A program made the position numbers and the translations under genes. The notes beneath the pieces are model-generated. The model saw only the letters and a program-made list of their open reading frames with translations, ran no database searches and was not told the origin of the DNA. DNA of 64,000 nucleotides from Bilabrum cf. latius (Eukaryota): assembly GCA_965178125.1 (NCBI GenBank), contig OZ237753.1, positions 992,001-1,056,000 on the forward strand. The letters are read 5' to 3'. Of the stretch, positions 18,001-63,119 are shown piece after piece; within the stretch, counting starts at the first letter, position 1, and every line of letters begins with the position of its first letter.

Positions 18001-21000
18001 CGATGGCCCCTCCTGCCTGGTAGCCCGCAGACAGGAGACCCACACGGACCGCCTCCATCAGGCTCCTCGCCCACTGCCTCCTCCTGCGCAGTCTCCTCTG
18101 CCTCTCGTTGTGGTGGCCCACTGCGTCTGCCAGTGCCCTGTACATAGGGTGCCTGGACTCCTCCACCGCGTAGAAAGCCTGCTTCTCAGCGTCAAAGCGC
18201 AGGCTAGCCGCGTGCTTGCCGAAAACCTCGTGGATCTCCTCCGCTCTGAAAGGGCGCCCGATGGCTGCCACGTTCCAGTTGGAGCACGCCAGCACAGACT
18301 GCCCCTGCTTGACACCAAGGAGCATCTGCTCGGGCTCGTCCTCCTGCCTGTGCAGCTGGCACTTGGCACCCGTGCCCATTACCCAGCAGTTGAAGCAAAC
18401 CTCTCGTCTGCGCTTGGGGGGCATGGGCACCTCGACGTTGGGCCGCGGCAGGGCCCCATCGTCCTCCTCTTCTTGTCCCTTGGCCTCCCCGAGCCCCTCG
18501 TGCTCCTGGGCGGCCCCCCGCGAGCCGGCCCCCAGCTGCTGCCCCAGCCCCGCGAACTTCATCGTTGGTGCCATCTCGTCCGTTGCATCGCTCTGCTGTA
18601 CGGGCATCCCGCGCCTGTCAGTTCCCGTCCTCGTCTTGCTGCCCCCGCGCTTGCCCTTGCCCTTGCGCCTGCGCCTGCCCTTGCCCTGCCTCTGCTGCTG
18701 CCGCTCCCCCACTGCCGCCCCGAACGGCTTCCCCATGCCCGCCAGCCCCTGGTCTCCCGTGGACGAGGCCAGCAGCGCCGCCACAGAGTCATACTTGGTG
18801 GACCGCAGTGCTCCCGAGACCACCTCCCGCAGACTGGACTTCCTCGTCCCGTCGGGGTGGAACAGCCTGCCCTCTTCCAGCGCGTCCTCTGCGTCCACGC
18901 TGCCCACGCTCTTGGCCTCGTCCTGCTGCGGGTCCTGGGGCCGGTTCTCATGCTGTCCGTACGGCCCGGGCCCCAGCGAGTCCAAGCTCCCCTGCCCTGG
19001 CAGCGGGCCCGGCGGTGGCTGCCCGTGCGTGGACGCGTGCATGAGCGCCCTCCCATCCGATACACCCTGCTGGTCGCCCTCGCCCAGCTGCTGCCCGCTC
19101 GCTCCCGGACCCACCTGCGTGGCCCAGTCGCCCCCGCGGGAGATGGAGGACGGGGCGGGCCGATGGGCGAGCGCCGCCCTGTGGTCCAGCGGCTGCAGCT
19201 GCGATGCACCCAGCATACGGGGCTGCGGCAGGGTGCCTCCCATGGCCTGCGTATCTGTGGAGCGGACGCTCTGCAGGGCCATGGGCGTGCCGGGCTGGTG
19301 GAGCCCAGGCTGCTGGTAGTACTGGTGCTGCCCCGCAATGGGGTCCAGGGGACTCCGTGGGGGCATGTGTCCGATGGTAGAGTCCAGCGCCCCGGGAGTA
19401 ATAGCACGCGGAGGCAGCCCGCCGGCACCGTGCTGTCCTTGCTGCTGTTGCTGCTGCTGGGTTGCGATCCTCAGCTGGGAGAAGGAGCCCCCCGTCACCG
19501 GAGGGGAACCCCCTTGCGGGCCGTGCGCCAAGGGGCCTAATCGGTGGGGCTGCGGGGTGCCCGGCTGCTGCATCCCTTCGGCTCGCATGCGCCGCGCAGA
19601 CTCCTCGGACATGGGCTGCAGCGCGGGGCCGCCAGGGGTGGGCAGCATCGAGTCGCCGCCTAGAGTCCGGCCAGGGGTGCCCAGGCCGTACGGGTCTGCC
19701 GGCCCCGCCTCCGGGTCGATCACTACGGCCCCGCTGGGCAACTGCCTCTGGCGCTGCCCGGGTACTGCGGCTCCGCTGTCCCCTGCCCCCATGGATCTGG
19801 CCGAGAATTCCTCGTGCATCCTCCTGGCCTCCTCTTCCTCGGCATATACCCCCGTTTGCGTGTTGAGCAGATAGACCTGCCTCGTCCCCGGGTCCACGAT
19901 CCGCTGCACCACTAGGCCGCCGTGGAACGCGCGCTCGTACGCTTTCCGAAACTCGGACCGAAGCTTGCGCACCCTCCGCCTTGCTGAGAAACCTCGCCAT
20001 GCCCGCTGCATGCCCTCCACAGCCCGCATGTGCTCCACCTCCCGCTCCCCCTCCTGCATCCCCCGCTGCACCCCCGCCTCCGCCCTCGCCCTCGCCTCCA
20101 CCCCTCCCTCGGCCATGCTCAGCCGCTCCTGCTCCGCCTCGATCTCTGCCACCGTCATGCCCTTGCGCGGGGCGAAGTCGTCCACGCCCTCCCGCACGCG
20201 CCGCTCCTCTGCGTCGAAGCCAAAGCGCCCGCTCGGTCTGCCGTCACCAGCCTGCTGGTCTCTCTCCTGATACCCTGTGCCCTGCCCAACCTCCCCCGCG
20301 CGACCGTCCATTTGCACGGGCGTGTCTGGTCTCGAGTCACCTGCGAGTGATGACTCCATGCTAGCCCGCCCCGAGATCGAGGGCCCCACCCCGCTGACAT
20401 CCGCTCCCTCGGGCCCCACCCCGAAGTCCTCCTCTTCCTCGTCACGGTACTCGTCCTCAGACCCAGACCCAGGCCCCCTAGAGGAGCCGCCCGGGGTCTG
20501 CGCGGATGGGGTCCCTGGCGCGCTACCAGGAGTACGCCCTTGCCCCAGTCCGTGCGTATCGAGAACAGGTGCGGGGGCATCCGCCGGCGGGGCCTGCACG
20601 CCAAGCCCAGCAGCACCGGCCCCCATTGGCACCGGGGCACGGGCTGCAGCAGATCCAGGCGGCATGCCCCCGCTCGTGCCAGGCATGCCACCGGCCATCG
20701 GCATGCCATATCCCATGCCCATGCCGGGCTGCATGCCCATGCCCATCCCAAAGCCCATGCCGGGCTGCATGCCCATGCCCATGCCCATGCCCATCCCCAT
20801 GCTGCCGCCCATGCCCATGCCCTGCGAAGCCGCCAGCATGGAGGACGAGCCCATGCCCAACGAGGGCTGGGACTAGAAGTGCGATTGCGAGCTGGAGGCC
20901 AATCCCAGCTGGCCCTATGACATGGACCCAGATACCTGGCCTTGTCCTTGTCCCTGCTACGGCTGCTGGCTACCCAGTGGGGGCAAGGGAGCATACCCCT

Positions 21001-21592
21001 GCGGGGTCATCCCCGGCATCGGCAGCATCATGCCCTGCAGGGGCCCGAATGGGGCCATTGCCATCGGCACTCCACCCGCGCCGCCAGGCCCATTATGCTA
21101 GCTGCCTTGGCCACCGGAATACATGCTGCGCAGTGCTGCCTGGGCCGCTGCATGAGCGGCCTGCGATGCCTACTTCGAAATGTCGTCGTCAGTCACAACA
21201 CCACCTAGTGGTATCGGCGGTACTGATGGGGGATGTCTATCTCTATCTTGCGGCGGCGATCTTGAGCGGCGGCCCCGACTTGGTGGGGATCGCGACCTCG
21301 ATCCACCAAGCCGACTTGAGCTCCTTGTGCCACGCCGCCCGCGACCGCGGCGCTGCTCATGCTATGATGCTACCGCAGAATCCTGAGCCCACCTGCCTCC
21401 AGTGCCAAGCAGTTCTTCAGTCTGCTCAGTGATGTACCCAGGCGGGAGCCTGGTCGAACTCCCCCCTCGCTGCATCTACCTCCCCCGTAATGTGGCATCT
21501 TTTCGCCCTTTCAAGAAGGATCTAGTTGAGTCATTCAGGCCTGGACGACGGCGCTGGGCAGCGCCGCGCCCACCATCGTGGTAGGCCGACAT
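12035..21592 (-). CDS. giant (~3185 aa) low-complexity protein with IQ, WW, Cys/His cluster and C-terminal ankyrin repeats
   Basis: One frame from ATG 21592 to TGA 12035-12037 with 12 TAGs (21476, 21362, 21170, 21098, 20957, 20915, 20873, 17837, 17060, 14903, 13736, 12254). IQ-like MQRAWRGFSARRRV; WW GIPYWYNRRTGETYWEPP; CFNCW..CQLH; ankyrin GNALLLVAA*NGNRRIAKLCLRRGANINARNNAGNTALHFC. Confidence 0.82.
20715..20822 (-). repeat. coding (Met-Gly)n / MQPG low-complexity repeat
   Basis: Runs of GCCCAT units on + encode MGMGMG and MQPGMG repeats in the giant protein. Confidence 0.7.
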
Positions 21593-21774
21593 TTTTGCTG
21601 CGTTTTCCAAAACCGATACATGCATTGTACAGTGTTGATTCGACAGACCCTCGAAATCTGGTATAACTTGGGACCCGTTGGGACAACCAGGAGCTGCAGC
21701 TGCAGCAGTAGCCAACACCCCTGTTCATTGTCACAAGGCAAGATTCAATCAGTCAATTATTGTGACTTATTGCG

Positions 21775-24038
21775 ATGCAGGCCACTAAAGCTGCATCGAA
21801 CACCGGCGGAGGCAAGGGTCCTGGGAGCGGCGCGAGTGACCACGAGACTGTCAAAGTTGCCGTCCGTTGCAGAGGTTTGAATGCCAAAGAGCAACAAAGT
21901 GGGGCTGGAGTTGCAATTACAGTACATCCTGTGAGCCTCGACGCAAATTGGAACGCCAGGATCCACGAGATCACCCACTGCCGGGTATCGACGCACATCC
22001 TCGTGCCATTTGCTTTGTTGATTGCTACCATTGCTTTGTTTTTATTCCAACAGGAGACCCAACAAGTGACTGCTGGAAAAAGAGCGTTTTCCTTTGACTG
22101 GGCGTATGGGGAGACTTCCACGCAGCAAGAGGTGTACGAATCATCCGTGGCACCGCTGGTGCAGGCCTTCCTGTCCGGATTGAACGCTTCCATCCTCGCC
22201 TACGGACAAACTGGCGCGGGTAAGACATATACGATGGGAACAACGTTCGATCCGTCCGAAAGCGCCGGTCGCGTGGGCGTGATTCCTAGAGTCCTGCAGG
22301 ACGTGTTTGGCGGAGTGGAAGCCGCTGCTGCGTCGGGCGAGTGGAAGCACAGGCTAGAGGCGTCCTACTTGGAGATCTACAACGAGCAGGTGCGCGATCT
22401 GCTCATGCCAGAGGGTGAGCAGCCCCCCAAGCGCGGGTACCACATGCACCGCGACGATTTCGGCAACTACGACGTGCAGGGGGTGACGCACGTGCCCATG
22501 ACGAGCTTGGAGGACCTCGCCCTGCTACTGGAGAGGGGCGCGCACAGGAGGGCGACGGCCGCCACCAACATGAACGCAACTTCCTCCAGGTCCCATGCCG
22601 TGTTCACGCTGCGGCTAGAGCAGATCCCCACCACCTCTTCGTCGTCGTCATCGGGGGCACTGCCAGCAGCAGGGGCAGCATCGGCTGCGAGCGGCGAAGA
22701 GGAGGTGGATGAGGATGACACGGACAGTGCCGGAAGCTAGGCAGGGGCACCGTCTACGCCGGACGCGAAAGCTCGGCCGGCCCCCGTAGTGTCCTCGGAT
22801 GGTCTGCGCAAGGTGTCTGTGTTCCGGCTGGTGGACCTGGCAGGCAGCGAGCGGGCCAAGAAGACTGGGGCCGAGGGGCAGCGGCTGCGGGAGGCCAACA
22901 ACATCAACCAGAGCCTGAGCACGCTGGGGCGGTGCATCACCGCCCTGGCTTCCAGGGCGAGCCACGTGCCATTCCGAAACAGCAAGCTCACGCAGCTGCT
23001 GAGCAACAGCCTGGGTGGCAACAGCGCCACCCTCATGATTGCATGCGTCAGCCCTGCCGACAGCAGCTTTGAGGAGACTCTCAATACCCTGCGGTACGCA
23101 GATACGGCCTCTTCTATCGAGAACAAGCCGGTGGTGAACGCAGACCCGCACGCTGCATCGGTGGTGCAACTGCGGGGGTGCATCAGCGAGCTGCGGCGCG
23201 AGCTGGCGAGGCTCTACTCCAAGGGGGTGGCCATCGACGGGGACATCCTGCAGCGGTACGACATCTCGGGGGCCAGTGGAGCCTCCCCTAGAAAGCTGGG
23301 GCCGGGGCAAGGGGCGGTGGCGGGATCCTCGCGCTCGCCGGCAGTGCTGGCACGGGTGGCTTGGGGGGACGAGAGGCCAATTACGGGGACGGGGGCGGCG
23401 CGGGCGCTGGGTGCCTCTGCGCTGTCAGCCAGCTCCAGCTCTGCCGCTGCTGCGGGCGGTGCCCCGTTCGGTGTCGGACTGGGTCCCGGCGCGGTCGGTC
23501 ACGAGCTCAGCGCTCTGCGTGACGAGCTCGCTGATGCGCATGCGCAGGCGCACCGCGCGAATGCCGACCTCGCCCAGGCCCGCCGGGAGCTGGCTGACAT
23601 GGGACAGAGGGGGCGCTGGGCCGTCGACCAGGCCAGCCGGTTGCTGGAGGAGAACGCGGGGCTGGAAGCAGCAAGAGACAAGTGGAGGTGGCGGTTTGAG
23701 ACCGTGGCGGCGAGCGTGCACGCACCGACGGAGGCGGAAGACGACCATGCAGAGAGCAAAGAGACCGAGGGAACAGAGAGAAAAGAGGCAGACAGCGCTG
23801 GGGAGGATGAGGGGGAGGATGAGGCCGGTCTCGAGCAGCTGCCCGCCGGGGCCCGGTGGGTGGTGGGGCGGCTCCGGTCGAGCGGTGAGAAGGCCGCCCT
23901 CCAGCTCGTGGGCGAGAAGGACGAGGAGCTGCAGTGCCTGAGGCACCGCTTGCAGTCCATGCGGGCTGGGCTAGAAGGGGTGGCCGCCGCTGGGGCCGAG
24001 GCGGAGGAACAGATCGCCGCCGATGCCCAACCGGGCAG

Positions 24039-24075
<37 letters not shown>

Positions 24076-27000
24076 CCCATGGCGGACGAGGGCGAGGGCG
24101 AGGGCGAGGTAGGTGGTGAAGACATGCGCCAGGCTGCAGCCAGGCCCGTGGCCTCCATTGCGCCTAGGGCCCGGGCTATCCTCGCCGCGGACGATGCGTC
24201 TGCTGCAGAGGCCCGCACGCTGAGGGCACATCTGGATGGCCTGCGCGACGATAAGCCGCAAGGAAGTGGGGAGCTCAGCAGTGGTGACGGCGGCGCGATG
24301 GTGGACGAGCACGCTGCCGCTGCATACTCAGAAGGGGCTGGGGGCGCATCGGTCGAGCTCGACAACGCGATGAGCGCGAGCACCAGCACAGGCGGGCCGG
24401 GCGAGCATGACGTGGCGCACATCAAGAAACAGATGGAGCTGCGGGGCCAGCTCCAGGAGCTGGGCGAGGTGATTGCCGCGAAGCAGCGGCTGCTTGAGGC
24501 CAGCCAGGCCCAGCTGGGGCCTGGCGCTCGGGAGGACGAGTTCCAGCAGCTGTCGGAGGAGTTCAAGGCGGCTATGCAGCAGCGGGAGGAGGAGGTGGCG
24601 GCGCTGGAGGCCAAGTGCAGGGCACTTGCCGAGGAGCTGCGGGCGCACAACGAGGAGGCATCCAAGAGCAAGGCGGACGCGGCACAGGAGCAGCTACTCA
24701 AGAAGAAGGACCAGCAGCTGACCGAGCTGAGGGGCCGGATCCGGTCGCTGCAGGAGGAGATGAAGCAGGCCCAGCGCGAGCACCGCGCCAAGGAGAGGAG
24801 CGTCCAGCGGGTGTCTTTGCTGCAGCGGGAGATCGAGGACCACAAGAGGCACAGGGCGCAGCTGGACAAGAAGATGGGAGAGACAGCCCGCAAGTACCGG
24901 GAGGAGAAACAGCGCATGCACAGGGAGGCGGCACAGGCGGCCAAGCGGGAGCGCCAGCGCGCCCTGGAGCTGAGCAAGGCCCGGGCCGCGCTGCAGCAGA
25001 AGGAGAGGGCGCTTGAGGCCGCGAGGCAGAGGGAGCGAGCGCACAAGAAGCAGGACGACCTTATGAGGAAGAAGAGGGAGCACGTGCAAAGCGCCAGAGC
25101 GGCATCGGCTGCGGCATCGGGAGCGAGGGGAGGCCGCGCATTCGCTGTGCCCAGGTCCGGGTCCAGGGTGGCAGGCGACGGCTTCGCTTTGCCCAGGACC
25201 CGGGGCGGCAGGGAGCGGGGCACGAGCTCCAACGAGCTGCCCGACCTGGCAAGGGATACTAGCGGCCTGGAGGGGGGCGCAGCGGCTCTTGTGGAGGAGT
25301 GTCTGCGAGACGCGGAGGGTCAAGGCCAGGGGCAGGGATACGGGGCCTCCTCGGACGGCGGCCTGGAGGGCATCGACCTGGGGCAGGACGGGGAGAAGGC
25401 GCTGCCGGTGGCTTCCCGCGCCCTGGACTCGCACTCGCAGTCGATCGTGCGGCGGGCTCTCTACTACCGGGCGCAGGCGACCGTGTGGCTGCGGCGGGCC
25501 GAGGCCTGGGTGCAGGAGAGGGCGAGGCTGGCGCGGGAGGTGGACGAGCTGGGCAAGCGGGCCATGCGGGCCATGGAGGGAGACGGTGGGGCAGCGGGTG
25601 TGCCAGATGGGGGGGAAAGTGGCGAGTCGAGCTGCGCGGTGCTGTCGCAGGCGATCGAGGAGCGTAAGCGCAAGATGGTATCATTGACGCTGCAGATCCA
25701 GGACGCGCAGGCCCACCGGCAGCACTTCCACGGGCTGTGCGAAGAGGAGGGGCTCGTGGGAGACGGCTGGATCCGGAGGGTGCTGGCAGAGAACAAGCTG
25801 CCCCGCAGGATCGCACGCACTGTGGGGTCTCGGCTGCTGCGATGGTTCGCCACAATGGTGGTCACCATGAACCTCAGGCTGTTTGCAGCGCTGGGAGAGG
25901 TCGATGGTGCCGACGGGGCTCGCCGTGATGGTGGGGGGGAGCAGGAGCAGGGGCGGGCGGCGTCGGGGCCCACGGCTGCGGCGCGGCTAAAGAGCCGCAT
26001 CACCGAGCTCGAGAGCACTCTGGAAACAGAGCGTGCAGCGGGCAGGCGGGTGCAGTGGAAGCTGCAGCAGCAGCACGCCATGGCGCAGCACGATGACGCG
26101 GAGACCATCGCGGCTCTGCGGCTGTAGCTGAACCAGGCAGAAGCTCAGGCAGTGGGAGCTGGTGAGGGGGCAGAAGGAGGGGAGACTGACGGGGCGAGCG
26201 GTCCCTCTCAGGCTGGCGGCGCCGCCAGCGGTGCCTCAGGGGATGGCGAGGCGGCAGCGCGCAAGGAGGCGGCCCGGCTGCGTCTGGCCTTCGCCCGCAT
26301 GCAGCGGCGCATGGCCAGGGACCTGGAGGCCGCGCGGGAGCGGACAGACCGAGCGGAGGAGGACAGTGGGCGGGTGCAGGAGCTGGAGGCGCACGTGCAG
26401 GAGCTAGAGGAGAGGCTAGCCGAGGCTCGGCGCAGCGCACGCCTCGCCTCTGCCCCTCGCACGCTGAGCAAGATTCCCCGGAGCGCGTCCAGAGCGGAGG
26501 GGGACGAAGAGGAGCGGCAGCAGGGGCGCGGGTTGGCGGGAGGTGCCGTGGCTCGGGCCATCTTTGGGGAAGGGGCTACATCCACCTCGAGCACAGGTGC
26601 AGCGGCTGCAGGGGCCCAGCCGGCCATGAGTGGCAATGGAGGAGGGGAGGCCGATGGCGGCGAGGGCGACGCTGACATGGAAGGCGAGGAGGAGGGGCCA
26701 GAGGGCGAGAGCTTCATCGTCGATGTGGAGGCGGGGACGGAGGGGGGGGCTGCCGCTGCATCATCGATTGCTTCTCTCAGTCCTGGGAGCAAGAGACGAC
26801 GGGAGCAGATCGAGGAGGAGGAAGCCGAGAGCGGTGAGTCTTCCAATGCCACCACGCCCAGGATGCGAGCTATCAGCGGACAGGAGGAGGAAGAGGCGCC
26901 TGGGTCAGGCGGATTGGGGCGCTACATTCGCACCACTTCGGACGATGATGTTGGGCCTGCAGCGTTAGCCAAGCGCGAGGGTGCCAGGCGTGCATCTGTG

Positions 27001-28245
27001 CCTGCCGCAACTCGCATCGGGGGCAACGCAAGCGCCTCCAAATTGTCAGCGGACGGGCCTGCCGAGCCTGCCAGCAAGCTGAGGCGTGTGATGACTGGTC
27101 TCTCGCGCCAGGTGTCCGACCTTTCGGACAAGGCAGGCAGCAAGGCAGAGCCAGCCACGATGCTGGCGAATGGTGGGGTTGAGGAGGACTCGGACGAGGA
27201 CTCGGACGAGGAGGAAGAGGACGAATACGTGGATGCAACGAACGGGGGCTTCGAGCAGGCCAAGGAGCAGCACGAGAAGGAGAAGGAGCTGCACGACGCA
27301 TCTGCAATGGCGGAGCGACTCAGGGGCAAGAGCATCTACGGCATGAAGCGGGCAGCGTTTGGTTCTTCCGTGCGAAGGGATGCGCCCGTCGACCATGCCA
27401 AGCGGGTGGATGAGAGGAGGCGCGTGTTGCGGCAGTCGGTCCGGCAGCGGTCAGGGTCGGCAGAGGAGGGGCGTCTGGGCGAAGGGGCGGCTGCAGCAGG
27501 CGGCGTTGAAGCGACAGGCGAGCAGCATCGGCTTGCGGCGCGCAGGAGGCGACGGCAACGGGCAGGCATGGATCCCAGCAAGCTAGCAGCGGCGCAATCT
27601 GCGGTGGATGCTGCCAGGGGCGTTGCATCGGGGCTTGCCAGCAGGCCACCGAGGGCGGGTGCGGGCGCGCCTCAATCGCAGGGCGCAGCACCTCCCGCCC
27701 CAGTGTCGGCCCAGGTGGACTTGTCTGACATGGTCGGAGAGATTCCTCTGCACCCTGAGGATGAGGTGAGTGCCGATTCCGGGCCCGGGCAGGCAAGCAG
27801 CAGCAGCAGTGCAGCATCCTCGTCGTCATCCTCGTCCCAGGCAGGTGCTCCCCAGGGCAAGGCAAGGTTTAGGGCGCACATGCGGATGGATCCGGAGAAG
27901 AGACGCGCGAAGCGGCGGAAGAGCTCGATGGCTAGGTTGATCGAGACTGCGGATACTCAAGGGGCAGGGTCTGCCGCAGGCGAGAGTTCGGAATTCGCGG
28001 CGCCGGGCACACCCACAGCGAGAAGGAAGCGAGCTGCGGCACTCAGGGCGGCCGATGGGAACCAGGCAGCGGCGTCCGGTAGCAAGCGCAGGGCCCGGTC
28101 GGTCGACACGCCCGGTGCCAGCGAGAAGAAGAAGAGCGCGACTGGTGCAGCAAGTGGTCGGCGCGCATCCGGAGTGGGAATGGCAGGGCACCGGAGGGCC
28201 AGGACGAGAGGGGGTGCAATGCAAAGGGGTGGTCAGAGGGGGTAA
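21775..28245 (+). CDS. kinesin-4 family motor (KIF4/KIF21/KIF27-like) with long coiled coil and disordered tail
   Basis: ATG 21775; probable 123-nt intron 21931-22053 (GTGAG..CAG). P-loop AYGQTGAGKTYTMG, SSRSHAVFT, LVDLAGSER, SPADSSFEETLNTLRYA..IENKPVVNADP. In-frame TAGs at 22738 (motor-domain loop between switch I and II) and 26125; ends TAA 28243-28245. Confidence 0.9.
24043..24075 (+). repeat. (GGCTCG)n hexamer repeat encoding Gly-Ser
   Basis: About five tandem GGCTCG units within the kinesin stalk. Confidence 0.7.
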
Positions 28246-28424
28246 GGGTGCTAGCTGAGGCGCAGTTTGTACCTATTGAAACAATCATCTTACTAATTGT
28301 TCATCCACTCGGTACAGTGTCACGTGAGTATATGGGGAAATCGCACCGTAAAAATAGCCGCTGAGTTCCCGTCCCTGCAAGCTGCACGCGAGGAGACACG
28401 GTCCGCCCCAACAGCCCGTCCCCA

Positions 28425-31400
28425 TTAGGTAGTTGACGTCCCTTGCCCAAACGAGTCCGCCGAGCTACTGGAGTCGAGCCAGTCCACTCGCTGGACCCCG
28501 GAGGTTTGCGGTGGCCCTGTCTGCGTGCCTTCATGCGTGTACGAACCGCCTGCTAGCTGCTGTACAGACGATCGCCCTGTGGCTGTCATGGATGACCCCG
28601 CAGTGCCACTGCTGCTGTCGCTCTCTAGCATACTGCGAGCCAGCCGTTTGGACCGTGGGCTTGCAGATCTTCGGCCCGCACCCGAGGCCTCCTCGTCTGG
28701 CCGGCTCTCTTGGGGTGGACCTCTGTCCAGTGTGCTCTGCTGCAGCTCGGAGCCTTCGGCAAAGCCCATTGGGCGCAGCAATCGAGTCCCCACGGGGGAC
28801 ATCAAGTCGTGACCGTGGTCCTTTGCCCGCAAAACATCAGTCTGAAAAGACTTGGGGGCGACCACATGCCCATCTGCGCCCCCATCGGCCGGTTTCTGAC
28901 TTGCTGTCCCCTAGGACCGATCTGAAGACGACTGCGACAGAGATAAGCCGGACGGACTCGCAGGAACGGAGCCCAAGCCAGCTCGTTGGCCGTGCTTCGC
29001 CAGTCGCTGCACACGCAATGCTACCTCCAGCTGTGCAGCGCTGGACCCCTGAGCCAGCTCGCTAGCGATGGTCCTCCGGCGCACGCTTGAGTTTGCGTCA
29101 AGTGCGCCGAGGGCTGCGGGTGGAGGCGCCGTCGCGAAGTCGTTCTCCAGGTACCCACGACCTGCAGGGCGCCATGTGCCAGCATCTTCCTGGCTTGCGT
29201 GTCGCCTGGCGTCCAGCAAGCTCGCCCTCATCCGCTGCCGGATCTCTGCAGGTGACGAGGCTCGCATCGAGCCGGTGGTACGCTGCCTCTGAGAGAGCAA
29301 GCTCGTAGCTGCGCGATCGCTTTCATTTGGCTGTGCACGGTGCCTCGAGATGTCGTCGTCGCTGACACGGGAAATTTTGTTCCTAGGAAAAGCTGGGGCT
29401 CGGGCTGCGTCTTGGCCCAAGCTGCCCGAGCTGGACTCGGTGGATTCACCGCTCCACGTCGCTGCCACCTGGTGCCCGCGGACCACGGTGACCTCAGAGT
29501 CCTCCAGGTCACGGCGCGCCGCCTGCAGCCACCGCTGTGCCTCTTCCATATCCAGACCACCGCTACCGCGCTGCGGTCGATCCCCCCTTTGCACCCGACT
29601 AGGCCATGCCGACGAGGCCAGAACTCCCCTGGAACCGCCCGGCCTAGATCTTTGCATCACCGAAGCTGAACTCTTCTTTGGTGCGTTGATAGGGTCGTCC
29701 CCATCTGCTCGCAGTATAGGCTAAGTGGACTAGTGAGTAGCTTGCTGGTACCCCGACCCGCTGGCCAAAGCTTCGTCAGCGTGTGTCTGGTCCTGTATCG
29801 GTTCATTTGCCTGCTCACTGGTCCTGGCATGATTTAGGGGATAAAACCGAACTCCGGCTGCACGCTCACGCACGGTAGGGGCCGCCCGGATGGATTGATC
29901 AGCTCCCCACCCCGCCCCACGACGATCGCTAGCAGGCCTGTCCATTGAAGCCGCTGCTGCCGCGATCCGCCTCTTCTACTACTATCGCTTTTGCACGGCA
30001 GCTTGCCACCGATGGAGTGCCCGCTTGGCTACCCCGCGGTAAACACCTGCTACAGCTGCTTCCATTTCGCTTCGACGGGCAGCAAGACTCCTTCCCCAGG
30101 CATCGAAGCTCCTGCGCAACACACTGGCAGCCCAGTGCCTCACAGCGGCCAGCTCAGCACGTCGCAACTGCGCCCTCTCTGCCGCAACAGACCCCCAGGC
30201 AAGCATGCACCGTCTGGCACGCACGCGCCTGCCCACTGTCCTTGCGCGCCACATCTGCACCCACCTTAGCAGGATCGCGCGAGCCCGCCGTCGCAAGATG
30301 TGGCGCGACCTCGCCTCGTCCTCCAAGCGGAGCTGCCGCCGCTACTGCACCGCCTCGACGAATGCCGGAAACGCCTTTTGCCGGAGCCGAACAGCCCAGA
30401 ATGCGATTGCCTTGTTTTGCTGTCGTCTGAGTCTGCGGGCAATCCCAGCGCGTCGCCTCCAGAGACCGAACGCTAAGGCCCGCGCGCATGTCCCTGCACT
30501 TCTGGCTTGGACATCCGTTGCACGCGAGCCATCGAGGACAACAGCGATCCGGCTAAGCATGAAGCGGGCGCCCAGCTGCCACACACGTGCGTTCGGGTCC
30601 TGCCGGGCCTCACCGTTCTCGCACTGCGCCACACTGCCGGACGATGAATCCGAGGATACAGCCGCAACGCGCAAGGCCTTGCTATACCAGGGCTCTGCCG
30701 CGCTGGATGCCTGATGCTCCTCAGCAGCCCACTGCCTCCACGGCTGGATGCAGGATCGAAGCAGGCGGAGGTGGCACAACCGCTCCATGTGCTTCACCCG
30801 GGTCATCGAGGTTGTTCTCTGCTTCCAAGCGAGGAACGCGAGTCTGCCCACTTTCCAACGGTACCTGTCGCCGAGCAGGGCACTCAGGCGGCGTCTGGCG
30901 ATTCGCAGTCGGGCCATCACGGTCCACTTGTGGACGCACCGTCGCAGGGCAGAGCTCTTGGCGTGTGCCCTTGCAAGCGCCGTGCGGGTTCGCGCCTGGC
31001 TGCTCTCGTGGGCGCTGCGAGCCCACTAAGCCATGCACGCCTGAGCGAGCTCTCGCTCTCGGTGTGCAACGCACCTCTTCCGGAGAGCGAGGTAGGTGGT
31101 CTGGCGCCGCCATGAAATCCATGCGCCGCGTTTGGCTCTTGCCGCAAGCCTGCCTTGCAGCACCAGCTCGCGTGAGTGCAGGGTTCGCTTTCGATGCAGC
31201 TCGCCTCGCCACACCTGCATGGACCCTGCCAGCGCGCCTCGCCTCGTCCTGGTAGAGAGAACAGCGGAGGCCCTCGCCCTGTCTAGCACGCGAGCGGATG
31301 CACCATCGGCGAGGGCACGCAACGCACGGGCCTGCAGGCGCATGCGGCCCCGGAACGCCATCTAGAGCGCCAGAGCAGCGGCGGTCTTCTGGTCAGCCGC

Positions 31401-34400
31401 CCCCTTGCTCCACGCTCGCATCGCAAGGCGGAGGGACTCGAGGCGCTGGCGACTTGCGCGTGCACGCACTTCCCGACGAGATCGCACGAACCGCACCATC
31501 GAGGCCCACGTCGCGCGCACCCGAGCCAGTCGGAATGCCCGCCGCACCGATAGGACAACGAGGCGAAACGAAGAGGAACGGCGCGCGGCACGGCCCCAAG
31601 CTCGGAGAGCGCCGTGAGCTGCGCGAGTGGCCCAGAACGAGTCTGCCCGCTACTGCAAGGCTCGAGTCTCGTTCATGCTAAAGACCCGCCGCGACCATCG
31701 ATGAATACCGCGCCTGGCCAGCAGCACTGCTCGCATTCTGGTGGCCACTGCATCTCTGTGCCGCTCCAGTCGAGCATCTGAGGCAGCCACCGCCCAAGCA
31801 TGGAGATGATTCCTCGTACGACGGGCCCTGACGCGCATCTCCAGGACATCAGCTGCACCTTGTGCTCGACGCCCGCGGCGGGCTGCCTCTCCCAGCAAAG
31901 CCAGCGCCTTGCGCAGCACGGTGCGGTGGTGCCTGCGTGAAGCAGCCCGCAGCGCAGCACGCCTGGCTTGCGATTCTACCCGGCAGCGAAGCAGAGACAG
32001 CAGCCCGCGGCGCAAACGGAGTCGAACCCGAAGCGAGTCGGCCACCCGCTCCAGCGCAGTGCACCTGGCCTGTTCTCGCGCAGCTTGCAGCCACCCGTGC
32101 AGCGCTGACGAGGCCAGTCGCCTGGCCCTGAACACGATGGCGGCAGCCTCCTGCCTGGCTTCGTGAAGCACTTGCTCAGCACTGGCTGACCACCGCTGGA
32201 TAGCAGCTCGCAGCACGACTCGATGCATGGCCGCGCATATGCACCTCAGCGCCGCCCTTCGCTCCCTCTGCATCCTGGTGCCTGCCCTCAGCGCCGCCAG
32301 CGCACCGGCGAGGGCAGATCGCTCCCGCTGCGACGAGATTCGCGCGATGCCGGCCCGGACCGCCGCAGTATTTCTCCAAGCCTGTCTCCACCTACGCAGC
32401 GTGTGCCGTGCCCTCCTCCTGACCGCTGCTCGCGCTACTGCTCTGGCAGCCTCACGCACCTCCCGCTGTCTGGCCGCGCCTTCAGCCCAGCCCTTGATGG
32501 CCCACCGCCCCAGTCGCAGTGCAGCAAGCGCCCTCGCAGAGGCGCAATTAACCCGGCGGCGGGCGTGTTCGCTGGCCCATTGCCTCCACGCAGACACGCC
32601 CCTGTGAAGGCCGCGCTTGCGGCGAAGCAGATCCGCGGCGTTGGCCCGCAGCCGGTTCATCCTGCGGCTCCTGGCAAAATTAGCCAACTGGCTCAGTCCT
32701 TGCTTCGCTTGCCTGCTTACATGGTGCTGTCTGGCTGTTTGCAATGCATGGCGCTGCAACAAGACATATCGTCCTGCCATGTGCATCCTGCGGAGAGCGT
32801 CGGATGCGAACCGCAATCGGCGCCTCGTCTCCAGCATCGCAGCGCACGATCGACATCGAGCCTCACGGTTGGCGGCGGCTTGCCATGCCCGCAGAATGGC
32901 CCGGCAATGGTACGATTCGTCGCAGTGCCGCAGCTTGGCCGTTGCTTCGACACGTGCTTGCTCCCTGCGGCCTGCCTCCTGTTTCCACGCTCGCAGGGCA
33001 CGTCTCGAGAGAGACACCCGCGCGAAATCAACTGCGGCACCGGCTTGCGCCCGCTCTAGTAGACGTGCTTCGGTTGCTTCACGCCACGCATACCAAGCCT
33101 TGCGTCTGCTCCTCATATCCACCGACTATCGAGCTCGTTGCTCCACCACCAGGAGCACGCGACGCCTCTCGAGAGCACTGCCCCACCTAGCAAGGGTCTC
33201 TCGCTGCAACCGACGACATGCCCGTGCCCGCACCACGCTAGCACAGGCACTGAGCTGCTTGGAGCGGACCGTAAATCGGCGCCACATCCGCCAGCTCCGA
33301 TGGCGCAGGCGCATCCGTCTCCATGCAGCAGCGGCCTGCAGTGCACGTGCAAGGCGAAGCCGGCTGTGGAACTGCTCCCGCCACGCTGTCCAGGCCGTGT
33401 CTTGCAGCGCCTGCCTCCGCAAGCGGGACACATGCATGCGGCTTATCCTCAGCTGTGCCTGCTTTCTGCTCGATGCATGCCAGTGCTGCATCGATTGCCT
33501 GACTCTCCGGGCCATAGACTCGACCCGCAGCTGCCGTTGCAGTCTGCACCACGTGGTGATGCGGCGCCAGCCAAGCTCCATGGCCCGCCTTCTTGCGAAT
33601 TCCTCCGCTCGAATACACAGGGTGCGTCGCATCCACCCATACCTGCGGATTCGTTCGGTCGCGAGGTGCATCTGAAGGCGTTGCGCCCCTCGTGTGAGCA
33701 GCGCAAAGCCCTATCGAAGCTTGCGCTAGCTGGCGATGTACCGCCACCATTGGTGAACAACCCGTCTCTGCCGGACTTTGTGCAAAAAGCAAGTCAAGCG
33801 CCCGGCCATTAATTCCGCTTGGCCGACTTGCTTGGCTCGGAGGGCTATAGCGCCGAAAGCGCGGCGGAGCAGAGGTCGAGTGAGCCCGCAGTGCACCAAT
33901 GCGCGGGCTCGCCTCATCTTCTGGGCTGCCCTGGACCATTGCTGAGCGCATGCCTTCCCAAGGCGGAGGACATGGAGTGTCCTGAGCCCCCGCACCTGCT
34001 GCTCCTGTCGAACCACATGCCTCCATGGAACCAGGATGGTTCGTTTTCGTCTTGCTCTCAGGCGGGCAGACAGCTCCAGCCCGAGCTCTTTCAGGCTCCT
34101 GGCTCGCCTCACAGAAGCCTCGAGCCCTGTCCATCCCAGCTCAAGCAGGCGCCGCCGCCTGAAAGATGTAGCAGCACGATGCGGCCTCTTAGTTTCGGCA
34201 AGAACTCGTGCTACGTGGTGCCAACGGCGTAGTACGACCCTTCCGAAAGCCTTCGCAGTCGACATCTGACCCACGTGATCACGCCAGGACAACAAGTACG
34301 ACCTGACTCTCTCTCGCTAGAATCGAGCATGCAGAGCCTGCTGCACCAATTCCATCACCGGCCCCTACACCTAAGGCACTGCAAAAGATACTCCTCGAAC

Positions 34401-36590
34401 TGCTCCCACAGGCATCATCCCGTCCGACCTGCCAGCCGTGCCTGCTCCCCCGCCCACTCCCACAGGCATCATCCCGTCCGACCTGCCAGCCGTGCCTGCT
34501 CCCCCGCCCACTCCCACAGGCATCACCCCGTCCGACCTGCCAGCCGTGCCTGCTCCCCCGCCCACTCCCACAGGCATCATCCCGTCCGACCTGCCAGCCG
34601 TGCCTGCTCCCCCGCCCACTCCCACAGGCATCATCCCGTCCGACCTGCCAGCCGTGCCTGCTCCCCCGCCCACTCCCACAGGCATCATCCCGTCCGACCT
34701 GCCAGCCGTGCCTGCTCCCCCGCCCACTCCCACAGGCATCATCCCGTCCGACCTGCCAGCCGTGCCTGCTCCCCCGCCCACTCCCACAGGCATCACCCCG
34801 TCCGACCTGCCAGCCGTGCCTGCTCCCCCGCCTACTCCCACAGGCATCATCCCGTCCGACCTGCCAGCCGTGCCTGCTCCCCCGCCCACTCCCACAGGCA
34901 TCATCCCGTCCGACCTGCCAGCCGTGCCTGCTCCCCCGCCCACTCCCACAGGCATCATCCCGTCCGACCTGCCAGCCGTGCCTGCTCCCCCGCCCACTCC
35001 CACAGGCATCATCCCGTCCGACCTGCCAGCCGTGCCTGCTCCCCCGCCCACTCCCACAGGCATCACCCCGTCCGACCTGCCAGCCGTGCCTGCTCCCCCG
35101 CCCACTCCCACAGGCATCATCCCGTCCGACCTGCCAGCCGTGCCTGCTCCCCCGCCCACTCCCACAGGCATCATCCCGTCCGACCTGCCAGCCGTGCCTG
35201 CTCCCCCGCCCACTCCCACAGGCATCACCCCGTCCGACCTGCCAGCCGTGCCTGCTCCCCCGCCCACTCCCACAGGCATCATCCCGTCCGACCTGCCAGC
35301 CGTGCCTGCTCCCCCGCCCACTCCCACAGGCATCATCCCGTCCGACCTGCCAGCCGTGCCTGCTCCCCCGCCCACTCCCACAGGCATCATCCCGTCCGAC
35401 CTGCCAGCCGTGCCTGCTCCCCCGCCCACTCCCACAGGCATCATCCCGTCCGACCTGCCAGCCGTGCCTGCTCCCCCGCCCACTCCCACAGGCATCATCC
35501 CGTCCGACCTGCCAGCCGTGCCTGCTCCCCCGCCCACTCCCACAGGCATCATCCCGTCCGACCTGCCAGCCGTGCCTGCTCCCCCGCCCACTCCCACAGG
35601 CATCATCCCGTCCGACCTGCCAGCCGTGCCTGCTCCCCCGCCCACTCCCACAGGCATCACCCCGTCCGACCTGCCAGCCGTGCCTGCTCCCCCGCCCACT
35701 CCCACAGGCATCATCCCGTCCGACCTGCCAGCCGTGCCTGCTCCCCCGCCCACTCCCACAGGCATCATCCCGTCCGACCTGCCAGCCGTGCCTGCTCCCC
35801 CGCCCACTCCCACAGGCATCATCCCGTCCGACCTGCCAGCCGTGCCTGCTCCCCCGCCCACTCCCACAGGCATCACCCCGTCCGACCTGCCAGCCGTGCC
35901 TGCTCCCCCGCCCACTCCCACAGGCATCATCCCGTCCGACCTGCCAGCCGTGCCTGCTCCCCCGCCCACTCCCACAGGCATCATCCCGTCCGACCTGCCA
36001 GCCGTGCCTGCTCCCCCGCCCACTCCCACAGGCATCATCCCGTCCGACCTGCCAGCCATGCTTGCACCTGCACCTTCAGGTGCCCCCACGCTGAAGTCTA
36101 CGTGCTGTATAGTATCAACTGCGGATCGTTCCATTCTGGTATTCGGATTTGATACGGGGATTGCCCTGGTGGGCTGATTTTGGTCACTCAACTGCAACGA
36201 CCGAAGGACATCGTGGCCCGTGTCTGCAACTAGCCTGGAGAGGTGCGCCTCAGGAGTATGCCCAAGCCCAACAGGTGTAGAATACACTTGAGTCCGCTGT
36301 GCAGTATCTTGATCGTAGCCGAGTGCCTGATATGCTGAGTCTCGAAGCGTTTCAGAGCGGCTGGCGTCGTACTTGCTTATGTGTTGAACCCCTGCACAGC
36401 TCCAGATGCCATGCAGGCTAATCGATGTTGTCATATTCTGCTTCGGAGATCTAGGAGAAGGGTGTTTGCTTGGGATTGTCAGCGCAGTGCGAAGTGCCAC
36501 TCTTGCCTGAATTGAGTCCCGTTGCCATCCTCTGTCTATGTCATCAATCAAATCTCCAAGTATTCCACCACTGCAAGGCGTGCCTTCCAT
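28425..36590 (-). CDS. SFI1-like centrin-binding repeat protein (~2700 aa) with an N-terminal 18-aa tandem repeat
   Basis: Eleven ORF-track fragments share one frame, joined by 16 TAGs (34371, 34365, 34317, 33726, 33711, 33126, 31650, 31362, 31026, 30342, 29982, 29979, 29976, 29730, 29721, 28911); TAA 28425-28427. Dozens of Arg/Ala-rich repeats of the form A..(F/H)....L.RRA(F/L)..W, typical of SFI1 repeats. First in-frame ATG at 36590; the 5' end is uncertain. Confidence 0.75.
34403..36057. repeat. 54-bp minisatellite, ~30.6 near-identical copies
   Basis: Unit ctcccacaggcatcatcccgtccgacctgccagccgtgcctgctcccccgccca. Variant catcaCccc in copies 3, 8, 13, 16, 24 and 28, plus one C>T near 34833. 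Encodes GRSDG(M/V)MPVGVGGGAGTA in the minus-strand gene frame. Confidence 0.97.
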
Positions 36591-40680: not shown

Positions 40681-43600
40681 ATGGTGTCCCAGATGCCTAC
40701 CGTATACTCAATGTCCATCGATATGCCAGAGTTGTGCACTGATGATCCATTCGTGGCCTATGCTGCCCAAGAAAGCACCGAGTGGCATACTCTGTTGCGA
40801 CGCCAGGTGCAGCCCTGGCGAGGTGCCCTGCCTCAATCTCGGAGCAATTCTGCTACATATTCAGATTTGCATAATTTGGATATCCTTGCAAGCTGCCAAG
40901 ATCGATACTTGTAGGAAGGCTAGAAGGTGGGGCGAACCTAGGGTGCTAGAGGAGGCAGTAGGTTTGTGCCCGACCTTCTGGCTGATTCTGCGATACAGGA
41001 CCCAGACACGCTAGACTCAATGGTAGATGTTGTTGAATCGAAAGAGCATGTCATTCGCGAGGACGTGAGCCGCTCAGTGGGCGCGGAGCTTCGAGAGGTG
41101 TTTTCAAGCTCTCAAGTGGACGGCAACAGCCTGCGCTCCATCAGGGATAGCCTGCAGCAGTCTATAGGACAAATTATTTAGCGAGCATGTAATCCTATGG
41201 ATATAGTCGGCGGAAATTTAGGTGAAGCAAGCGATCCAACAGCTAGGATTGCTAGCTCCCAACGACGGCCGCAACGGCGTAGCAGACGTTTAGCACGAAT
41301 AGCCATCGCTGCGGCGACTCGGTCATTGTTGCTAGATCCGCAGGGGCCTGCTGGGATGCCGCATGTGACAGACGCCTTGCTCGCCGCAGTTGACCTGGTG
41401 CATGCTGCCAAAGCCGATCCGGGGTCCACGGGCTTCGCATGCCGGCTCATGGTCGCGAAGAACCGCGCCTCTTCGCTCCCTCGCGTGCCGAGAGCCGCAA
41501 GCGCACTGACCGACCACGCGATCACAGTAGTTTGGACGCAGGTGCTCTGCCGTCGCTTCGAGGAAGACAGGCTGCGGGGCCAACTGGCGGGAGCGGGCGC
41601 CGCCGGCTCCCTCATCGTGGCAGCCAGGGCGGGCGATCAGCCAGGGAACAAAAACCCGTGGGTGGCCCGACTCCTGCGGCACCCTTCATGGAGGGCCAGT
41701 CTGCTGCAGGCTGCCGGATTGCCCCCCAAGAACCTGTTCCTGGACGCCGTGCGCAGCGGCTGCCTGCGGGAAGCACTGCACCAGTTGCGCGCACCCGGGG
41801 AAGGGGAAGGAGACCTATGGGGTGGGCGGCTGGCCTCTGCCGTGGAGGACATGGCTGCAGTGGCCAGGACTAGCCGGACCCCACTGCCCGTGCAGGCCGC
41901 CCTTCAGCTGGCCTCCTCCCGGGCTGCAGATGCAGTGCAGGCGCACCCTGTCCTGGCTGCGGGTGCCCTCGCTGCCTCTGCTGCTGAGTTGCCGGCGTCG
42001 CTGCTGGCCGCCGCAATGCACGCAGGCCTTGCATCTCGGCTATTGTCCGTTAGCTTCAGACCAATGGGTGCGCAGCGGGCCCTCCGAGTAGCGGACGAAG
42101 CGAGCGCTGTGGCCGTGCTGCGTGGAGCTGGTTCTCTCAAGCCGCTGGTGTCCGCGTCAGATGCTGGCGCGCCCGGCGCGCAAGCAGGCGCTGCATAGGC
42201 GCAGATAGATGCAGGTTGGCCGGCAAGTGAGACAGCGGGGAGGGCAGGGGCCTAGCCGGCGCGCGGTGCCCTTGCCAGAGGCCAGGCCGCCTCGGCTGCC
42301 TCTGCGGGCGCGCGGCAGTCCCATTTTTATGGAGGGGTGGCACAGCGAGGAGCCGTCCGGCATCAGGGCTCAGAGCAGGCTGCGGCGAGTCGGCACGCGA
42401 GAGAGGCGGCGGTGTGGGCCGATCGAGTGCTGGGTGGCACCGACCATGGCACAGGCACAGGCACAGCCTCTGCTCCACCCAGCTCTGCCCTGCCACCGGC
42501 CGGCAGCGCTGCACGTGCGGCACAGGTGCCGGGTGCTCACGCGGGCGGTGCCCTGGCTTGCAGGCTCCAAGCTGCCAAGCTGAGCGCCAGTCTCCTGGCC
42601 CTCGCGGTGCAAGATGTCGGAGCTGCCGGCGGGGGCGTTGTGCTGCCTCGTGGCCTGGCCTGGTCTCTCGCATTCGCGGCGAGCTCGGCCTCGCAGGCCA
42701 TGGACGTTGGGGCCGACTATGCAGCCAAGATTGTGTCAGCCGCTCGGCGGTTTGTGAGTGGCAGTGACAGCCAGAGCGGTGGTTCCAGCAACAGTGGGGA
42801 GTCTTCGTCGTCGGGTGCCGCATGGCATGTAGGGCTGTCGGGTGCAGGCATTGCTGCGGGCATCTTGACAAACAGCCGAGGGGCTCCTGAGACCGTGACA
42901 GCTGCTGCGGCTGGGCTTGGGGCCCCTGTGGATGCAACCGCTGGTGTCAGCAAACGGGAAGATCCGCCCGTACGGCGAGAGGGCGAGGACGGACCGGGTC
43001 GCAGTGGACGACTGGCGCCTGCACCAGGCGGTATTGAGCTCGTGCTGGAAGGAGAGCACGCTCTGGCTCTGCTGCCGCCTGACAGCGGCTCGCTCCCGGT
43101 ATCAGAGCCGAAAATCCGCTCGTAGGGCAACCCTATGCTGCTTGCTGCCGCGAGACCGAGCGAGGGTTAGTAGACTGGCGCATCTGGCAGCAACACAAGC
43201 ATCAGCTCGTCGGCGTGGCTCCGAGGAGTAGTTGCCATCATGGGTGCGCTCTCCGTCGCGCGCCACCCCACTGAAGGGGCTGCTGCGGATGCTGCGTCTG
43301 TTTCGCAGCCCAAGGCAAAGGTGTTGCTGATGGCCTGCTGCAGGTGTCTTCGGCTGCACACTCTCCGCCAGGTGCTGCGTCTGGTGCTCGTGCGACCTGA
43401 GCAAGCTGGTGCGAGCGACCGCACGTTGGCCGCAACCGCGCTCAGTATCGCATCCCACGCTCCTCTGCTGCCTGGCTCTGGCGACCGCGAGTTTGCTGCT
43501 GCGGTGGAATCAACGGCAGTGGACGCTGTGGCTCGCCGGTGCCACCGCAGCCTGCGGTCTGTGCAGAGAGCGCATGAGCTGTGCCAGTCGGCACACTCTC

Positions 43601-44928: not shown

Positions 44929-46859
44929 ATGGTTGTGAGGCTGCGTAAGGTATGCAACAAACTCCGCTGAATCCGCTTTCGCTTGTCTTGTTGCCACCGC
45001 AGGCCCATCCAAAGGACCAAATGAGTCAGAGCTTACAGACAAGGCAGCCATGGATACTTTGTAGACTGCGTCCAGCCCGGCATCGAAGGAAGATGGTTCA
45101 GACGTGAAGCTCGGGGATGAGAAACCAGCAACTAGCGTAGACAAAGGTACCACAAACGAACAGCCTGCAAATTCGAGTACCGCTCCAGAATCGACATTAA
45201 CATAGTAGCCTGTTGCTGCATCTGGCGATAAGCCAAACTAGCCATTAAGCAGTGAGGTGTCCAGTAGCTCAGGAAGTGCAGGAGCATCAGAAGCTGCTCA
45301 GCAGCGCGCAGAAGACAAGGAACCAGACGTAACAGACGACAAAGCAAGCTCTAGAGTATCATTTAATGGTGATACAGCTGCAGATGATCTCGAAGAGCAG
45401 CTGCTGGCTCGGACGGAAGAGCTCGTGGCTGCTAGAAAGGAAAATGTGAAGGTGAGCAACTGCGAAGCCAGAGAAATCAACATGCAACGGCTGGTTCATA
45501 AGGCCCGCCCCGCCGCAATTAGAGCATGGTCTCTCCAACGGCGGCCCGGGAGTATCCACAGCCAAGAGCGATCGCCTGATTCGCAACATCTACTGTTTTG
45601 CCTGCCCCCTTGGAATGATTGCATGTATGCACTTGCCCTGTTCCACGTCACTGCCCCCTTCGCAGCTATAGTCAGACTTACAGAGAGCGCGTGAGGCTGC
45701 CCAAGCTAGTGCCAAGTCTGGCGCAGGGACCGCTGCCTCTGGACCACCGGCCCCTGCTGAGCTGGACACCCTCAAGGCGGAGATGCAGGAGACGAGGAGC
45801 GCGCTCCTGGCAGCGCTTCCTCTCGGCCAGCCTAAGGACGGCTCTGCTGGTAGTGGTGCGCCTGGATCGGATGCCAAATTGCCAGAGCTGGCCCGCTTGC
45901 TGGCTTCGCATGCTTCCGCGGGTCGCACCGGGGACGCCGAGTCGCAGGTGGACCAGCTCAGGGAGGAGCTTCGGGCCTCGCGGGCCGAGGGACAGCGGCT
46001 CCACGAGGACTTGCAGGAGGCAAGGGGGGCACTGGAGGAGGCGCAGCTCGAGGTGGATCAGATGCGGGCCGACGAGCATGCCTCGGGGGCGCGCATGGCG
46101 GCCTCACAGCTGAGGTCGCTGAGGCAGCGGCACAAGCGTCTGAAGCACGACCTGGCAGGCAGCGAGGACAAGGTGGACGCTCTCACGGAGCACATCGAGA
46201 AGCTGATGATCCACCTCAAGCACGAGGCAGCGGCCAAGGCACGCGCCATGGACGCTGCCAGGAAGGCAGAGCGGGAGGCCGGCAGGCTGCGGGATCGGGG
46301 GCACGGGCTGGCGCAGTCCAACTTGGAGCGGGAGCGGGTGATCCTGGAGCTCAAGGAGGGAGCCAAGATCCTGGAGGACCAGCTCCGGCTCATGGATCAG
46401 AAGTACGTGGAGCTCAGGGGTAAGCTGGATTGGACACGAGCCCATGCCAAGAAGGAGGTAGCTCGGGCGGAGAAGCAGGTAGACCACGTGAGGAGGCAGT
46501 GGATCCAGGTGCAGGCAGCGGTGCCGCGCAAGCTGAGGCAGCAGATCGCGGACCCGCCGCCTCCCCTGAAGGAGACGCTAGCAAAGAAGGGGAAGAGGCG
46601 AAAGAAGAAGAAAGCAGGAGCGGGGTTCGACTCGAGCGGGAAGCGATCTGACAGCGAGGCGGGGGCTGGGCCAGCGGGGGCATCACCCATGCGGTCCACG
46701 GGGGGGTTCTCGTTGGGCAGCACGGAAGGGGGCAGGCTTTCTGGGATGCATACATCCAAGCGGGACCAGGACTACTCGCAGGCGATGAGCGTGCTAGATG
46801 CAGCGCCTGCGAGCAGGCCACAGAGCAGTCAGCAGAGAGGGACTGGGGCCCGGCGATGA
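44929..46859 (+). CDS. coiled-coil protein
   Basis: Clear intron 45452-45665 (GTGAG..CAG) joining RKENVK|L*SDLQRARE. Possible first intron 44945-45002 (alternative start ATG 45050). TAGs at 45062, 45203, 45206, 45239 and 45669. Conserved-looking core LTEHIEKLMIHLKHEA...LEDQLRLMDQKYVELRGKLDWTR; TGA 46857. Confidence 0.7.

Positions 46860-57276: not shown

Positions 57277-63119
<5,843 letters not shown>

Follow-up and report, generated by a model that had tools for sequence, protein, structure and literature searches.

A TAG triple within a Sfi1-like gene and the probable decoding of UAG as glutamine in a nuclear genome of likely stramenopile origin

The TAG triple and the genes around it

The window, a stretch of 64,000 nt (G000:C19:992001-1056000) from an assembly of 48.6 Mb in 111 contigs, contains on its minus strand a Sfi1-like gene (centrin-binding repeat; 28425..36590) of 2,721 codons from the first ATG at 36590, the predicted start. 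Its open reading frame ends with a TAA at 28427-28425 and holds 16 in-frame TAG codons. Three of these form an uninterrupted run (TAGTAGTAG) at 29976-29984, which has no second occurrence on either strand of the window; ten lie before the run and three after it. On the minus strand the context is AAG CGA TAG TAG TAG AAG AGG CGG, and the triple, read as Gln-Gln-Gln, would occupy approximately residues 2203-2205 of 2,721, where the Sfi1-repeat region ends. A sequence-only reading of this DNA had reported three in-frame TAGs within KRQQQKRR and about 500 further codons up to a TAA. Both observations hold, the frame being open for 516 codons past the triple.

The assignment to Sfi1 is marginal. 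The best stretch of the Pfam match (PF08457; 30669..31343, minus strand; 22.3 bits against a cut-off of 22 bits, E 5.5e-5) includes the TAG at 31028 and came from one of the two parts of the ORF that were scanned; the whole ORF, scanned with TAG as X, had no Pfam match. The spacing of Trp residues has maxima at 33 and 66 residues, and the middle of the protein is rich in Arg, Ala and Trp. With PF08457 and Trp-anchored repeats, the two features by which Sfi1 repeats were judged, the product is marginally placed among the Sfi1 repeat proteins and is predicted to bind centrin. The 5' part of the ORF carries a 54-bp tandem repeat (34403..36065; 30.8 copies, 99% alike) that is in frame and encodes an 18-residue unit.

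The part past the triple (28428..29975, minus strand) is a low-complexity tail with a coding-like codon score and the three remaining TAGs. Its frame has no TAA or TGA over 516 codons, whereas the other five frames have 3-12 each over the same stretch; sequences simulated with the same dinucleotide make-up contained 8.0 on average and none in only 9 of 20,000 cases. A contig from run X1 spans 28307-32265 without any difference from the assembly, and an X4 contig likewise covers the triple with 0 differences; neither carries information on strand, transcript ends or expression level. Run X1 was labelled as doubtful RNA, probably DNA, and is counted as RNA from a single spliced GT-AG joint that is missing in the X4 contig. 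This joint corresponds to an intron between 21930 and 22054 in the kinesin gene (21766..28245, plus strand; two TAGs, stop TAA), which is spliced in X1 and unspliced in X4. Since X1 covers the triple unchanged and is spliced elsewhere, the TAGs of the Sfi1-like gene are probably present in the transcript, neither edited nor spliced out. A transcript terminus just after 29976, which would have made the triple a genuine tandem stop, was not seen, as the X1 contig runs straight through this site.

The triple is mildly unusual in number. Among 31 long ORFs (78,502 codons), TAG occurred three times in one of the 36 QQQ windows, with 0.03 expected if codons were independent, although this case was picked post hoc; TAG-TAG made up 5 of the 278 QQ pairs against 2.3 expected. 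The run of glutamines was probably produced by repeat slippage. The triple is an ordinary QQQ run and a symptom of the code change, not a special signal, and hundreds of other TAGs carry the evidence.

Two TAG pairs had also been pointed out. The one at 43168..43173 (plus strand) is indeed in frame within a long ORF (40675-44745; 1,356 codons, 12 TAGs, stop TGA) that matched no Pfam family. The one at 45203..45208 (plus strand) is present in a frame free of TAA and TGA, but the coding nature of this frame, probably the first exon of a coiled-coil gene without homology support, is only putative. In-frame TAGs were found in nine of the ten long gene-like ORFs of the window. They include the gene for the largest subunit of RNA polymerase III (RPC1; 57324..63119, plus strand) with seven TAGs, one of which, at 61314, stands at a column with Gln in 110/120 homologues (the columns of five others examined are variable or gapped), and an ORF with C-terminal ankyrin repeats (12035..21724, minus strand; 3,229 codons, 12 TAGs, stop TGA). 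The gene for glycine decarboxylase P protein (51598..54891, minus strand), a high-GC3 gene, has no TAG, stops at TGA and serves as an internal control. TAGs crowd the 5' parts of long ORFs (20875-21478, 40912-41179), where codon bias seems weaker; in the ankyrin ORF 7 of the 12 lie within the first 290 codons.

The meaning of TAG in conserved genes and at gene ends

Dynein heavy chains, found by Pfam AAA_6 (28 matches), offered the largest set of columns. All 20 stop codons inside these matches were TAG, and neither TAA nor TGA occurred. Nineteen loci were aligned with 149 homologues (P0253, a 99% self match, was left out); they contained 265 TAGs, 149 of them in well-aligned columns. The log-likelihood summed over these 149 columns was +115 for Gln, -66 for Lys and -71 for Glu, so that Gln leads by about 180 log units. 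Among the 24 TAG columns conserved to at least 70%, 18 were Gln, five Glu and one Val. As a control, all 61 sense codons were put through this test, and each came out with its standard meaning. When nearer homologues were added (without L080, see below), the residue profile at TAG columns (Q 0.25, E 0.13, Y 0.012, L 0.049) was practically that at CAA columns (0.26, 0.13, 0.012 and 0.040). Tyr, Leu, Glu, Lys, Trp and Ser as meanings of TAG were ruled out by the dynein columns, and pyrrolysine, a label that ARAGORN gives to any CUA tRNA, by the Gln profile.

Some columns deviate. Glu is slightly over-represented at TAG columns (Fisher p 0.08, 0.17 and 0.016 with three homologue sets), and in the pooled conserved columns TAG falls on Gln in 20/29 cases compared with 297/364 for CAG. 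In Prp8 both conserved TAGs are off Gln columns, on Pro (119/119) and His (120/121); in the same gene CAG is on Gln columns in 57/75 cases, and the protein deviates at 295 of 1,702 conserved columns. A TAG of GluRS aligns with Trp and Tyr in two solved homologues.

The usage of the codon points the same way as the dynein columns. In the 31 long ORFs TAG accounts for 340 of 3,730 Gln-type codons (9.1%), and its share of Gln codons correlates with that of CAA (rho 0.72) and inversely with GC3 (rho -0.84), the behaviour expected of a rare synonym. In a tandem repeat, the sixth copy has TAG in place of the CAG of the other five. The genes for eRF1, RPC1, Prp8, GluRS and the dyneins all have TAG inside but no internal TAA or TGA.

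The gene ends complement this picture. Every dynein gene that could be aligned to homologues to within two residues of its end (12/12) stops at TGA (10) or TAA (2) and none at TAG, and the eRF1 gene ends with TAA; with about a dozen anchored ends, rare TAG terminators would still be compatible with a sample this small. In L068 a TAG lies 19 codons upstream of the stop, in the aligned part. The 12 anchored ends and the 28 Pfam matches show that UAA and UGA, judged from the genes, remain stops and do not occur inside genes. In all probability, then, UAG is read as a third Gln codon in this nuclear genome, and UAA and UGA terminate translation.

The candidate tRNA, the release factor and the rival explanations

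An intact gene for a tRNA with the anticodon CUA lies at G000:C23:907607-907679 (69.8 bits in an Rfam search) and is followed by a T run. It was the top-scoring nuclear tRNA among the matches listed, in a search that scored 63 of 780 candidates and gave at least 48 matches. Among the 14 matches to a pattern for CUA or UUA anticodons, this gene alone was called a suppressor by ARAGORN; two pattern searches of the genome, covering intronless genes, revealed neither a second copy nor a tRNA(UUA). The sequence-only reading had held that efficient, dedicated decoding of TAG is implied; dedicated decoding is supported by the genome-wide use of TAG as a third Gln codon together with this tRNA gene, and it would presumably be efficient.

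The sequence of the tRNA is a mosaic in comparison with 28 other distinct nuclear tRNA sequences, a set in which Trp, His and Leu tRNAs are absent (pattern searches gave no tRNA-Trp or tRNA-His and no Leu tRNA was recovered, hence the set is incomplete). The acceptor stem agrees with tRNA-Tyr(GUA) at 12/14 positions, the next best candidate reaching 6/14 (Gln(CUG) 6/14, Gln(UUG) 2/14). The anticodon stem agrees with Tyr at 8/10 (next best 6/10), the variable loop has five bases as in Tyr, compared with four in Gln and Glu, and C1:G72 is shared with tRNA-Tyr alone. In contrast, the D stem agrees with Gln(UUG) at 8/8 and with Tyr at 3/8, and G73 and the T loop are those of Gln(UUG). In a count of matches, Tyr reaches 50 and Gln(CUG), the least similar candidate, 42. 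The T stem agrees with Ser at 9/10, which indicates that the agreement of single arms can arise by chance. A tRNA-Asp gene was found as well and is unlike tRNA(CUA).

Amber mutants of E. coli tRNA-Tyr are mischarged with Gln. A review (PMC9976931) records acceptance of Gln by the amber forms of tRNA-Trp and tRNA-fMet from E. coli. It names A73, C1:G72, G34 and U35 as the eukaryotic Tyr identity set and G73, G2:C71, G10, U35 and A37 among the bacterial Gln elements, its part on Gln giving no eukaryotic set. The tRNA(CUA) keeps C1:G72 and U35 of the Tyr set but has G at position 73 and C at position 34, and it has all five of the Gln elements just named. Descent from the organism's own tRNA-Gln(CUG) or tRNA-Gln(UUG) is not what the comparison suggests, since the likeness to Gln(UUG) is confined to the D stem, G73 and the T loop. 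Descent from a Tyr tRNA gene, recombination of such a gene with one for Gln, and the direction of the change are tentative readings of these features; we consider the chances about even that the tRNA arose from, or recombined with, tRNA-Tyr(GUA) and acquired the identity of a Gln tRNA by way of a D stem of Gln type, G73 and G2:C71.

Three further observations concern the tRNA complement. The 3' half of tRNA-Tyr recurs without a change at G000:C1:271855-271886 (L012, 1332-1363), 170 bases upstream of the sole tRNA-Tyr gene found, as a remnant of a duplication. In the nuclear tRNAs for Ile, Val, Asn, Lys and Arg, position 54 is A instead of T. The nuclear tRNA-Ile has the anticodon GAU, and the anticodon loop is altered in three copies that resemble tRNA-Met (L011, L023, L028-L030, L042 for these nuclear tRNAs).

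The genome has one gene for eRF1 and one Pelota-like gene. The eRF1 gene itself holds two TAGs, at positions 44 and 69 (human numbering, i. e. yeast + 3). Position 44 is Gln in 116/118 homologues, and the nearest ones read PPKSQ. Position 69 is Leu in 117/118 homologues in one count and 118/120 in another, and Gln in 1/120, so this TAG is off a Gln column. T32, E55, NIKS, S70 and Y125 are retained. Changes unseen in 120 homologues are KAD for RGN before GTS (across a predicted exon join), Val60 and Ser-His at 129-130; in the nearest homologues the usual motifs are intact. In the homologues P0127, P0132 and P0138, GTS is preceded by RGA, and positions 129-130 are Ser-Arg. According to the mutant data in Blanchet et al. 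2015 (PMC4381064), L69A increases readthrough slightly more at UAG, N129 is proposed to sense a G at the third position and N30A is without effect. A plant eRF1 (P0122) has Gln69 too, so this residue cannot alone be the determinant. The altered positions suggest that eRF1 has lost UAG recognition or that this recognition is weakened.

A possible mechanism combines these elements. The only cytosolic GlnRS (G000:C33, about 559-561 kb) would charge the tRNA(CUA) with Gln, and the tRNA would read UAG only, since C34 cannot pair with the A of UAA; UAA could thus stay a stop. Recognition of UAG by eRF1 would be lost or weakened, and TAG would arise as a rare synonym through CAG-to-TAG transitions. 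The anticodon GUA of tRNA-Tyr is one base away from CUA. Tentatively, and with a probability that we put somewhat below even, this would be the first nuclear code change in stramenopiles, in which a Tyr-derived amber suppressor (GUA to CUA) was captured by GlnRS, UAG passed from stop through Tyr or a mixed meaning to Gln, and the dependence of eRF1 on UAG locked in the change.

UAG could also be a sense codon of ambiguous meaning, Gln for the most part but Tyr or Glu in a genuine fraction of cases, owing to the C1:G72 and U35 retained by the tRNA or to partial charging of the tRNA by GluRS. This would fit the Tyr-type acceptor and anticodon stems, the five Glu among the 24 conserved dynein columns and the GluRS TAG at an aromatic position. 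Yet the Tyr frequency at TAG columns (0.012-0.016) is at the level of CAG and CAA (0.010-0.013), that of Glu equals the value for CAA, the Tyr determinants A73 and G34 (PMC9976931) are missing from the tRNA, and the Glu excess can be explained by a one-step route from GAG to TAG, i. e. from Glu to Gln. Such ambiguity therefore seems improbable. In Condylostoma and Blastocrithidia codons are stop or sense depending on context, and UAG might accordingly be Gln inside genes and a stop near the 3' end of the mRNA. Few gene ends were examined, and an eRF1 that keeps T32, E55, Y125 and NIKS may still see UAG; however, TAG ends none of the 12 anchored dyneins nor eRF1, and it is used as close to a stop as in L068, so we consider a double meaning more improbable still.

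Hardly credible is the view that the triple is a true tandem stop with a 3' UTR tail, or that the TAGs reflect pseudogene damage, assembly errors, an intron or RNA editing. The triple does lie where the repeat region gives way to a homology-free low-complexity tail. But the ten TAGs upstream in the same ORF would have to be read before it is reached, the tail is open to an extent rarely simulated, the contigs of X1, which is spliced, and of X4 show no differences at the triple, and the TAGs are carried by the essential genes for eRF1, RPC1, Prp8, GluRS and dyneins, which are free of internal TAA and TGA.

The lineage and the comparison with known codes

Of 80 metagenome loci, one (L080) comes from a close relative, being 78% identical in DNA over 7,019 bases and 90% in protein. 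It has ten in-frame TAGs, which stand opposite CAG (8), CAA (1) and GAG (1). In their aligned part, 76 of the remaining 79 loci have no TAG and three have one each. A sister sequence (L081) has no TAG in 2,970 codons, and in the next relative (L089) a dynein stops at TAG. This indicates that the change is present in at least two species and missing from their nearest sampled kin.

The top named homologues are stramenopiles, with best identities of 53% for RPC1, 77% for eRF1 and 79% for Prp8. Trees were made by FastTree only: the last exon of eRF1 falls on a long branch in a clade of eight rows with Bicosoecida sp. CB-2014 (SH-like 89), the dyneins lie inside a clade with Aphanomyces, and RPC1 lies near Blastocystis and thraustochytrids. 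The mitochondrial contig (G000:C111; L053-L056) has 38.4 kb and 24% GC and uses code 4 with a tRNA-Trp(UCA), as is described for the bicosoecids Cafeteria and Cafileria in PMC6723347, which gives 42.8 kb for the mtDNA of Cafileria marina. All 22 mitochondrial ORFs of at least 150 codons lie on one strand and stop at TAA; only ten mitochondrial tRNAs were found by standard ARAGORN, implying heavy tRNA import. The assembly is unlike Halocafeteria seosinensis (38.9 Mb, 46.8% GC and 44 kb of mtDNA as stated in bioRxiv 10.64898/2026.06.25.734631) and unlike Cafeteria burkhardae with its GC content of about 70%. Taken together, these data suggest that the host, a single-celled flagellate of marine type, is very probably a heterotrophic stramenopile and probably a bicosoecid.

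The main 18S rRNA gene is arrayed and short (1,700 bases) and seems divergent at its 5' end (G000:C12:950271-1029808; L051, L052). A second one, 77-83% identical to it, lies on a contig of 17.9 kb (G000:C95:6099-7900; L050) and probably comes from a co-cultured or contaminating eukaryote.

The type of code is already known; the lineage and the Tyr/Gln mosaic tRNA are the new points. The same table, with UAG as Gln and UAA and UGA as stops, is given for the nuclear code of Iotanema spirale (Panek et al. 2017, PMC5304391; Vargova et al. 2022, PMC9161772), where UAA likewise stays a stop and the change is limited to a narrow lineage. Iotanema is a fornicate with T32G in eRF1, whereas here a stramenopile keeps T32; its tRNA is described as unidentified, with descent from tRNA-Gln(CUG) predicted (Panek et al., PMC5304391), the very tRNA that tRNA(CUA) resembles least here. 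The ciliates Hartmannula sinica, Trochilia petrani and Protocruzia tuzeti share the codon table by independent origins, and in the account of H. sinica and T. petrani no suppressor tRNA was detected (McGowan et al. 2024, PMC11687900). In the rhizarian exLh, as here, UAG alone is reassigned and position 69 of eRF1 is changed (PMC5304391); there, however, UAG is Leu with L69A, and here it would be Gln with a TAG-encoded Gln69. The ciliate PL0344, with UAG as Glu and UAA as Lys, has nuclear tRNA(CUA) genes that resemble the tRNA of their own amino acid (PMC10553269), whereas tRNA(CUA) of the window organism is closest to that of another. Code-15 phages and giant-virus MAGs read TAG as Gln with TAA and TGA as stops (PMC9523058, PMC13524828); these are viral, whereas the present genome is cellular and nuclear, has a tRNA of its own and encodes an altered eRF1.

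We found no nuclear code change in stramenopiles or bicosoecids in the literature, which as covered included few subscription journals and no supplements, and publication elsewhere is possible. A stramenopile case is absent from the parts of PMC5304391 and PMC11687900 that deal with variant codes, and the relevant part of a stramenopile review (PMC11412368) touches on genetic codes only via a mitochondrial reference.

Codes that split UAG from UAA are rare, and for the UAG-only Gln codes of Iotanema, Hartmannula and Trochilia no cognate tRNA is reported in the passages on these codes in PMC5304391 and PMC11687900. Here one contiguous assembly provides the full set of candidates, i. e. tRNA(CUA), GlnRS, the features targeted by TyrRS, and eRF1. 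Together with close relatives of standard code as controls, this makes testable the loss of UAG by an eRF1 that keeps UAA and the acceptance of a CUA tRNA by GlnRS. A Tyr/Gln mosaic tRNA, if true, contradicts the origin from tRNA-Gln that was expected for such suppressors (PMC5304391). The eRF1 gene needs UAG to be read at two sites, one of them linked to UAG recognition, by which the change, if true, would be locked in.

For the organism itself, annotation with the standard code would cut most of its long genes short. The packaging ATPase of endogenous viruses (PF04665) had no match in the genome, which does not prove its absence, and no copy of the tRNA(CUA) motif or of a host marker gene was present in the viral contigs searched. 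No viral link was found here; if the reading above is true, giant viruses in which TAG means Gln would have a candidate type of host in this lineage. A code change in a flagellate that feeds on bacteria is also relevant to the range of viruses able to infect it.
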